This document shows, one piece after another, positions 44,443 through 57,588 of a DNA stretch of 64,000 nucleotides. Within the stretch, counting starts at the first letter, position 1. Each line of letters begins with the position of its first letter. The notes under the pieces are model-generated. The model saw nothing but the letters and a program-made list of their open reading frames with translations, did not search any database and was not told the DNA's origin. A program made the translations under genes and the position numbers. Source of the stretch: Candidatus Aenigmatarchaeota archaeon (GTDB lineage: Archaea; Aenigmatarchaeota; Aenigmatarchaeia; CG10238-14; SCSR01); the NCBI GenBank assembly GCA_038998335.1, contig JAVZHQ010000001.1, forward strand, positions 512,001 to 576,000, read 5' to 3'.

Positions 44443-44997
44443 ATGCTCGAAAGTTTAATCGAAGCGATAAAATCCTTCATAATATCCTCTGGGGATTTTG
44501 GAATTTTTTTCGGTAATTTCTTGGCTTCAAGTATAATACCAATTCCTTCTGAAGCTGTTTTGTTTGTTCAAGGTGCTTCTGGTTTAGAAATAGTTAAAGT
44601 AACAATTCTAGGAGCAGTAGGTTCAACCTTGGGCTCCTTAGTTTGTTATTATCTTGGAAGATATGGAAGAAATTTTTTGGAAAAATATGGGAAGTACTTT
44701 TTTGTTTCTTCTGAAAAGTTAAAGTTTAGCGAGAAATGGTTTAAAAAATGGGGAAGCTATACTGTTTTGGTAAGCAGGATTATACCAGTAATTCCTTTCA
44801 AAATATTTTCAATAGCTTCCGGGATTTTAAAAATGAAGCTAAAAACTTATTTTATTTTAACTCTTATTGGCTCGTTTCCAAGATGCTTCTTACTTGCTTA
44901 CTTTGGCTTTTTAGCTTCTTCTAATATTTACCTTTCGATTTTGGCAATAGCAATTCTTTTTGCTGTTCCTGCTTTGATAGATAGAATAAAAAGATAG
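44443..44997 (+). CDS. DedA/VTT family membrane protein
   Basis: PIPSE, GSTLGS..YYLG, RIIPVIP. Confidence 0.92.
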   Translation: MLESLIEAIKSFIISSGDFGIFFGNFLASSIIPIPSEAVLFVQGASGLEIVKVTILGAVGSTLGSLVCYYLGRYGRNFLEKYGKYFFVSSEKLKFSEKWFKKWGSYTVLVSRIIPVIPFKIFSIASGILKMKLKTYFILTLIGSFPRCFLLAYFGFLASSNIYLSILAIAILFAVPALIDRIKR

Positions 44998-45113
44998 CCC
45001 CGAGCGGATTCGAACCGCTGTCACGAGGGTTCTTCCTCATCTTTTTTCAGAGCTTTGATGAGACCAAAGCCTTATACTAAGCTTCGTATGCTTGGCCGCT
45101 GCACCACGGGGCT
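44995..45113 (-). tRNA. tRNA-Gln(TTG) with two introns: 12 nt at 29/30 (45072-45083) and 34 nt at 37/38 (45030-45063)
   Basis: 73-nt cloverleaf after removal of both; central helices atac/gtat and cttt/gaag. Confidence 0.92.
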
Positions 45114-55684: not shown

Positions 55685-55744
55685 AGCTTCTTTCGTTTTA
55701 TCACCGTATAATAATATATTGGTTTACCATAATATTATAGATAA

Positions 55745-55826
55745 GCCCCGATAGCATAGTGGTAATGCGCCCGCCTCGTATATTCAAGAAAGCGGGAGAT
55801 CGAGGGTTCGAATCCCTCTCGGGGCT
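55745..55826 (+). tRNA. tRNA-Thr(CGT) with 10-nt intron at 37/38 (55781-55790)
   Basis: gccccga/tcggggc acceptor, cccgc/gcggg anticodon stem, ttcgaat T-loop. Confidence 0.9.
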
Positions 55827-55846
55827 TTGAAAAAAGGAGGAAAAAA

Positions 55847-56137: not shown

Positions 56138-56223
56138 GCGCTGGTAGTCCAGCCTGGTTAAGACGCAGAACTTAGCGGAACCCTGCCACGGCTGAAACGC
56201 GGGTTCAAATCCCGCCCAGCGCA
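56138..56223 (+). tRNA. tRNA-Gly(GCC) with 12-nt intron at 29/30 (56169-56180)
   Basis: gcgctgg/ccagcgc acceptor; cagcc/ggctg stem restored after removing aacttagcggaa. Confidence 0.9.
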
Positions 56224-57470: not shown

Positions 57471-57588
57471 GCAGGGGTTCCCGAGTCTGGTTAAAGGGGC
57501 AGGACTCAAGTCAGACTTGAGTTTTGATTCAAGATGAAAGAAATCCTGTGGCTTAGTGCCTTCCTGGGTTCAAATCCCAGCCCCTGCA
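57471..57588 (+). tRNA. tRNA-Leu(CAA) with 32-nt intron at 37/38 (57511-57542)
   Basis: gcagggg/cccctgc acceptor, cagga/tcctg stem, long variable arm. Confidence 0.92.

Follow-up and report, generated by a model that had tools for sequence, protein, structure and literature searches.

The canonical intron of the tRNA-Gln(UUG) gene in the window (the whole 64,000-nt stretch of DNA analysed here) is probably a minimal one-arm guide of the box C/D type, in which a single K-loop of D'- and C'-like boxes would direct the 2'-O-methylation of nucleotide (nt) 34 of the same tRNA before splicing, in alternation with the bulge-helix-bulge. The same design is found in five tRNAs of this Aenigmatarchaeota (DPANN) genome (1.0 Mb, 9 contigs, 33% GC), namely Gln(UUG), Leu(CAA), Leu(UAA), Trp(CCA) and elongator Met(CAU), and with seven anticodons over 41 genomes; the family of mini-introns proposed from two examples in the sequence-only reading of this DNA thus exists and extends beyond them. 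The sequencing runs that contain the genome are hot-spring metagenomes (DNA).

The Gln(UUG) gene was missed by default ARAGORN and by Rfam at its gathering score. It was recognised by ARAGORN with introns, which mislabelled it as Leu, by reading the sequence and cloverleaf, and as a sub-threshold Rfam tRNA match. Its parts are as follows:

44995-45113, minus strand: tRNA-Gln(UUG) gene, 119 nt, with two introns
45072-45083, minus strand: first, non-canonical intron of 12 nt interrupting the anticodon stem on its 5' side (about 29/30; boundaries +/-1 nt)
45064-45071, minus strand: tRNA nt 30-37 (GGCUUUGG / GGCTTTGG; ggctttgg), the proposed target strand, with U34 at 45067 (from the sequence)
45030-45063, minus strand: canonical 37/38 intron of 34 nt (from the sequence; all bulge-helix-bulge pairs form)
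45057-45062, minus strand: 5' strand of splicing helix h' (CUCAUC), overlapping the start of the antisense; 6/6 pairs with GAUGAG
45051-45058, minus strand: antisense element, intron nt 6-13 (UCAAAGCU), in which A9 (45055) pairs with U34; 8/8 pairs
45047-45050, minus strand: D'-like box CUGA, intron nt 14-17; NNGA at the same offset in 90/91 related introns
45042-45046, minus strand: A-rich 5-nt loop between the boxes, varying in length and sequence in relatives
45037-45041, minus strand: C'-like box GAUGA, intron nt 23-27, also within the 3' strand of h' (from sequence and pairing)
45030-45036, minus strand: purine tail GGAAGAA, in which GAAG pairs with C32-U35 (central helix) and the last AA together with nt 38 make the 3' splice bulge (from pairing)

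The acceptor stem and T arm of the gene are intact, and removal of the 12-nt intron brings together CGA and GG, which pair 5/5 with CCTCG. This extra anticodon-stem intron is present in both Gln genes of the genus and missing from the Gln genes of other genera, and the Gln(CUG) paralogue (C2:98147-98245, minus strand) has a canonical intron of just 13 nt that contains no boxes. Rfam has no family for the Gln(UUG) intron, its other matches being at chance level.

Read on the minus strand (45063-45030), the canonical intron has the layout TCTCA-TCAAAGCT-CTGA-AAAAA-GATGA-GGAAGAA. The sequence is as the sequence-only reading quoted it, with the antisense to nt 30-37 and both boxes where that reading placed them. 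TCAAAGCT pairs with tRNA nt 37-30 through six Watson-Crick and two G-U pairs, and the count upstream from CTGA confirms that A9 is the fifth nucleotide and that its partner is U34. The fifth-nucleotide rule, the C'/D' K-loop and guides of 10-12 nt are standard for box C/D sRNAs (PMC7994747). The layout of this one intron is rare in controls: among 200,000 mononucleotide shuffles of the intron, a 7-bp antisense to nt 31-37 occurred in 10,343, antisense together with GA at the box position in 1,041, and both with an ATGA downstream in 39. Its recurrence in other tRNAs and genomes, described below, likewise shows that it is not a product of chance.

A second intron of this design lies in the window:

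57471-57588, plus strand: tRNA-Leu(CAA) gene (ARAGORN with introns, and sequence)
57511-57542, plus strand: its 32-nt intron, with a 5-nt spacer, an 8-nt antisense (57516-57523), TTGA (57524-57527, nt 14-17) and GATGA (57533-57537, nt 23-27)

Its register and D-box position agree with those of Gln, as had been claimed. The canonical introns of Leu(CAA), Leu(UAA), Trp and Met are 32-36 nt long, and each is composed of a 5-nt spacer, a 7-8-nt antisense to nt 30/31-37, a first box (TTGA, TAGA, ATGA and TTGA, respectively), 5-6 nt, GATGA and a purine tail whose last three letters are GAA. These two Leu genes share 88% identity, and C34/U34 in their exons is matched by G/A in the antisense. Altogether nine introns of at least 30 nt occupy the canonical position in this genome: five with the layout, that of Cys with boxes and a shifted antisense, two of Ser with complete C-D'-C'-D sets, and that of Tyr, the sole one of the nine without boxes. 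The earlier expectation that other introns of 30-35 nt would carry the pattern is therefore borne out for most of them and fails for Tyr. The canonical introns of 10-19 nt (Arg, Thr, Gly, Ile and Gln(CUG)) have no boxes and possess the GAA-type tail.

Several further genes with introns or possible insertions were observed in this genome. A tRNA gene at 55744-55827 (plus strand, in the window), called Ala(cgc) by default ARAGORN, reads as Thr(CGU), its canonical intron being 10 nt long with GAA at the end, and another tRNA gene containing an intron lies at 56138-56223 (plus strand) of the window. A 125-nt gene at C2:74907-75031 (minus strand) combines an acceptor stem of initiator type with a CAT anticodon and apparently contains several non-canonical introns, and the 23S rRNA match at C1:412614-415875 (plus strand) spans 3262 nt against a model of 2987 positions and may hold an insertion or intron. 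The tRNA-Cys(GCA) gene (C1:371540-371646, plus strand, outside the window) has a 31-nt intron with TTGA-N5-GATGA, the 5' end of which (TTGGTCTT) is antisense to nt 36-42, so that the fifth-nucleotide position falls on C39. This arrangement is kept in 6 genomes of 4 genera, and in relative G015 a T-to-C change improves the pairing.

For comparison, 40 relatives were searched with the whole Gln, Leu, Trp and Met genes of this genome (at most 30 loci for each search), and the fetched loci were read by a custom tRNA parser into 94 genome-by-tRNA rows from 41 genomes. Three rows were left out, namely a Cys gene that had been taken for Lys, a truncated Leu gene, and a Trp row in which a tie hid the helix and which fits by eye, and the remaining 91 comprise Met 22, Gln 19, Trp 17, Leu(CAA) 16, Leu(UAA) 12, Glu(UUC) 4 and Lys(UUU) 1. 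Among these loci, which were picked by similarity to the genes of this genome and come from related genomes that are non-independent observations, the best intron-exon helix covers nt 34, and in 90 of the 91 introns an NNGA begins at +5 from the partner of nt 34. The first box is TTGA in 47, CTGA in 23, ATGA in 9, CAGA in 5, TCGA and CCGA in 2 each, and GTGA and TAGA in 1 each, the exception having CTAA; the consensus CUGA is thus found in just 23/91. GA occupies the expected offset in 90/91 introns as against 0-9/91 at the neighbouring offsets 1-6 and 8-13. An ATGA follows the first box by 1-8 nt in 88/91 (as GATGA in 68 and as ATGA alone in 20), and 81/91 end in GAA, which fits a G:C32 pair and the 3' splice bulge. 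The 5' spacer is 2-15 nt, the intron length 23-54 nt, and the antisense helices are 4-10 bp, mostly 6-9.

Over the seven anticodons and 41 genomes the antisense varies with the anticodon and its distance to the NNGA box is fixed, which bears out the earlier statement, made from Gln and Leu, that the guide sequence is adjusted to a different anticodon. Within a single identity it is kept, for instance as C[C/U]AAAGC across the 19 Gln introns. As a control for circularity, 92 rows were re-anchored on the box motif alone, and 89 could be anchored. In the fixed register 590/703 cells pair (84%), and a shift of 1-3 nt brings this down to 23-54%. Nt 34 pairs as U-A in 34 rows and as C-G in 46, and the Watson-Crick pair types number three at position 35 and four at position 36. 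All these figures are lowered by a small number of anchors located within the Met antisense (ATGAGC-N-ATGA). GATGA and the GA of the first box are retained whether or not the 5' spacer can pair with them.

The Gln(UUG) layout was found in at least 19 genomes of 13 genera and four families; the Gln(UUG) genes of two relatives are intron-less, and in the Gln(CUG) paralogues the introns are short or absent and have no boxes. A mini-intron in Glu(UUC) was observed in four relatives and one in Lys(UUU) in a single relative; both tRNAs are intron-less in this genome, indicating gain or loss. The tRNA-Thr(UGU) intron of G015 contains the element TTTGAGC-T-ATGA, which is not antisense to its own anticodon loop. 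On a broader scale, an exact Trp pattern (CTCCAG, 2-20 nt, GGAGC, NNNGA, 2-9 nt, ATGA) occurs in 89/371 genomes (48/170 genera) of a sample taken from the phylum, the reversed pattern giving one match. When 12 distant matches were cut out, 9 lay in tRNA-Trp genes and 3 elsewhere; a supposed complete C/D version of the Trp intron in one genome was ruled out, the match not being in a tRNA gene. A Met pattern, searched in a single genome per species (185,579 species), matched 91 stretches. Of these, 61 can be read as tRNA-Met genes whose introns measure 24-55 nt, among them 2 of the 20 titled as bacterial. Among the 80 titles listed of the 91, there were 38 Aenigmatarchaeota, 18 'archaeon' or 'uncultured archaeon', 3 Nanobdellati, 1 Micrarchaeota and 20 bacterial ones. 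No cultivated model archaeon appears among the matches listed, and since the pattern fixes nine exon bases it says little about other phyla.

The Gln intron can adopt two folds. Because GAUGAG is also the 3' strand of h' and GAAG pairs with C32-U35, it is able to form a textbook bulge-helix-bulge as well, with the 4-bp central helix H (CUUU of nt 32-35 with GAAG), the inner helix h' (CUCAUC with GAUGAG) and two 3-nt bulges containing the splice sites (GG|U and AA|C) at 37/38. All of these pairs form, and the motif is more relaxed in the Leu(CAA) and Trp introns as judged by eye. The double duty of GAUGAG, as box and as strand of a splicing helix, was passed over in the sequence-only reading. 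[quoted passage not shown] A guide-like element thus sits in the 37/38 intron of the very tRNA it would target, where it is an alternative to the splicing fold, as in the known intron-encoded pre-tRNA guide.

The core proteins of archaeal box C/D sRNPs are all encoded in the genome: L7Ae, Nop5 (357 aa, with N-terminal and Nop domains) and fibrillarin (222 aa), the last adjoining Nop5. The loss of the Nop5 coiled-coil was considered as a cause of a one-armed RNP and rejected, the domains of this 357-aa protein being usual. In comparison with complete guide RNAs, the intron has at the sequence level an internal D'/C' short loop with two GA dinucleotides (CUGA-AAAAA-GAUGA), and an antisense directly upstream of D/D' with a fifth-nucleotide target is seen in the 90 of 91 introns and all seven anticodons. 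What it does not have is the terminal K-turn of box C (RUGAUGA) and box D (CUGA) closed by a terminal stem, the 34 nt containing a single NNGA/GAUGA pair; nor does it have guides of 10-12 nt (the helices being 4-10 bp) or the complete C/D and C'/D' set with two guides for C34 and U39, there being one antisense and one box pair. We counted the single box pair, the missing terminal K-turn, the short helices, the degenerate boxes, the second role of GAUGAG in splicing, the intron-less Gln(UUG) genes and the box-less Gln(CUG) introns against the guide interpretation.

In other archaea nt 34 of the same tRNAs is a known target of stand-alone C/D sRNAs. Pyrococcus has guides of this kind for Leu(CAA), Leu(UAA), Met and Trp (PMC7994747), sR27 and sR26 of Pyrobaculum aim at U34 of tRNA-Gln and C34 of Trp (PMC6009581), and in S. 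acidocaldarius a C/D sRNA aims at U34, with Um34 seen in tRNA-Gln(UUG) (PMC7668247). As far as these accounts go, they share with the mini-introns the target nucleotide, largely the same set of tRNAs and the fifth-nucleotide rule, but are separate trans-acting genes of full two-motif architecture, whereas the guide proposed here is inside the intron of its target. Most of the tRNAs with mini-introns thus have counterparts elsewhere in which nt 34 is a C/D sRNA target; the exceptions are Glu and Lys, in a few relatives.

We suggest the following course of events. In the precursor tRNA, intron nt 6-13 would pair with nt 30-37 in a hairpin whose loop is the variable 5' spacer, and CUGA and GAUGA, directly 3' of the antisense helix and about 5 nt apart, would form a K-loop in the manner of internal C'/D' boxes. 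L7Ae may bind this K-loop and Nop5-fibrillarin be recruited, whereupon fibrillarin would methylate the 2'-hydroxyl of U34, the partner of the fifth guide position. The RNA would then refold into the bulge-helix-bulge and the intron be excised, which accords with M. kandleri, where modifications come before intron removal (PMC3695527). Presentation of the target in cis may let a short guide and a single K-motif suffice, and the excised or circular intron might act in trans as well. Single-domain function has a precedent in a Drosophila snoRNA, as quoted in PMC7994747.

It seems unlikely that the guide is real and works in trans only after excision, other precursors or mature tRNA being the substrates of the linear or circular intron, which might work as a dimer that brings two K-loops to each Nop5 dimer; this would in any case be a variant of cis guiding rather than a true rival to it. 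The intron of H. volcanii tRNA-Trp does work in trans, both marks being lost on its deletion (PMC7994747, PMC11408192), and two introns together would restore two-fold symmetry. However, A/U-rich duplexes of 6-9 bp would probably be weak for trans pairing in a hot-spring organism, and some spacers are so short that a hairpin loop is the sole fit.

We regard as rather improbable a structural or timing device that methylates nothing, in which the K-loop would bind L7Ae and the antisense mask the anticodon loop, so that the precursor is held non-spliceable until other maturation is done or the loop is shielded from nucleases or other enzymes. The exclusiveness and similar energy of the two folds, as well as the short antisense helices, would suit such a device, and a single K-loop is enough for L7Ae binding and not for site-specific methylation in vitro (PMC1635284). 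What it leaves unexplained is the +5 register at nt 34 in 90/91 introns when the other spacers vary, the choice of tRNAs that have a C/D-guided nt 34 elsewhere, and the Cys intron, which places the same boxes at +5 on C39.

Least of all do we expect the layout to be a by-product of splicing needs and common descent, its conserved parts being merely the bulge-helix-bulge helices of spreading introns: GAUGAG/CUCAUC and GAAG/C32-U35 are textbook elements of that motif, the 81/91 GAA ends fit it, and the introns share sequence across tRNAs (the Gln query found a Trp gene), yet an antisense to nt 30-37 is no part of the bulge-helix-bulge and competes with it, the latter needing pairs with the 3' end of the intron, the antisense tracks seven different anticodons, GATGA and the first-box GA are kept where the 5' spacer cannot pair, and the 10-19-nt canonical introns have a GAA-type tail without boxes. 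On balance, the interpretation of the mini-introns as putative self-guiding devices for wobble methylation is supported on comparative grounds.

Complete guide RNAs are also harboured by introns in this genome. A complete C-D'-C'-D regex applied to the whole genome matches just two tRNA-Ser introns, those of Ser(UGA) and Ser(CGA) (59 and 53 nt; loci C1:281225-281370 and C1:504696-504833, both minus strand and outside the window), with spacers of 10-12 nt and a 3-nt K-loop. 16S rRNA contains complements to both guides of the Ser(UGA) intron: the stretch CCCGUCAAGCCA at the top of helix 44 pairs with one, and UCACCUCC at the 3' end makes 8 Watson-Crick pairs with the second. Targets of the Ser and Cys intron guides were sought in rRNA and tRNA, a whole-genome target search being too noisy. 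An RNA of the Ser(UGA) type, 87-94% identical, recurs in three relatives, in two of them within an insertion that interrupts the 3' region of the 16S rRNA gene and in one in another context, which suggests that this putative guide RNA is mobile between introns. Strict and relaxed box regexes and a scan for rRNA 9-mers, which are insensitive to degenerate boxes, gave no stand-alone C/D sRNAs above controls: C-to-D box pairs were not enriched (16 vs 18-29 in shuffles), and the rRNA-complement scan gave 776 candidates vs 696 with reversed targets. Within the limits of these box and rRNA scans, the recognisable guides of the genome are all intron-borne.

The closest known system, present in Haloferax volcanii, Pyrococcus (sR50) and other Euryarchaeota, is the pre-tRNA-Trp intron, a box C/D RNA that directs the formation of Cm34 and Um39 (PMC7994747, PMC11408192). 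As published accounts describe it, it is likewise a 37/38 intron that targets its own tRNA, with antisense to the anticodon loop and alternating guide and splicing folds. It differs in that methylation of nt 34 is established there and predicted here, in having a complete C/D set with both box pairs and guides for C34 and U39 where the introns here have one pair and one guide in 23-54 nt, and in being confined to Trp, whereas the mini-introns occur in seven tRNA identities. In H. volcanii, moreover, the C34 guide lies upstream of the terminal D box and not before the D'-C' loop.

Another DPANN archaeon, Nanoarchaeum equitans, has a 66-nt intron in elongator tRNA-Met that was proposed to be a C/D sRNA, tRNA-Trp introns having been the only ones known as such before it (PMC3491384). 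It resembles the introns here as an intron-borne C/D-like RNA in tRNA-Met, but has a box C, a box D and a GC hairpin and is about twice as long, and no multi-tRNA family is described in that paper. A synthetic parallel is the 'hemi' box C/D RNP of Hardin and Batey (2006), with one K-motif and one guide; these authors stated that the two-motif architecture of natural sRNAs is absolutely conserved, found single-motif RNA active but non-specific in vitro, and cited earlier constructs as barely active (PMC1635284). The hemi RNP is engineered, whereas the introns here are natural, conserved and able to present their target in cis as a hairpin. Canonical archaeal bulge-helix-bulge introns share the 37/38 position, the two 3-nt bulges, the 4-bp helix and the inner helix, but have no need of an antisense-NNGA-GATGA module, and the 10-19-nt canonical introns of this genome are without it. 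Our literature search found no account of intron guides with one box pair or of Aenigmatarchaeota tRNA introns, and supplementary tables may list intron-borne sRNAs.

A more far-reaching proposal is tentative and in our judgement somewhat doubtful as a whole: that the detectable C/D guides of Aenigmatarchaeota are almost all intron-borne, as one-armed hemi-guides acting in cis in as many as seven tRNAs, and as full C/D RNAs in tRNA-Ser or 16S rRNA introns, that a single-K-loop enzyme would break the two-motif rule, and that 37/38 introns may persist as wobble-methylation guides. The narrower view, in which the mini-introns would be a version of the tRNA-Trp intron guide pared down to a single arm and found in several tRNAs of a DPANN lineage, is supported as a reading of sequences from these genomes.

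Why tRNA genes retain introns at 37/38 is a long-standing question with one clear archaeal answer, the tRNA-Trp intron guide, and a 2024 review names tRNA-Trp alone (PMC11408192). As a whole set of tRNAs in this DPANN lineage carries the stripped-down device, its function is testable on RNAs of 25-50 nt. If the introns work, they would be a natural single-motif box C/D guide, of a kind that in vitro studies judged non-specific and absent from nature, according to the account in PMC1635284. If true, this would bear on how the RNP measures its target, on a minimal guide for engineered RNA methylation and on the movement of guide RNAs between introns. The finding is also relevant to annotation, default tRNA finders having missed the tRNA-Gln(UUG) gene, and self-guiding methylation, if true, would give these tRNA introns a job.
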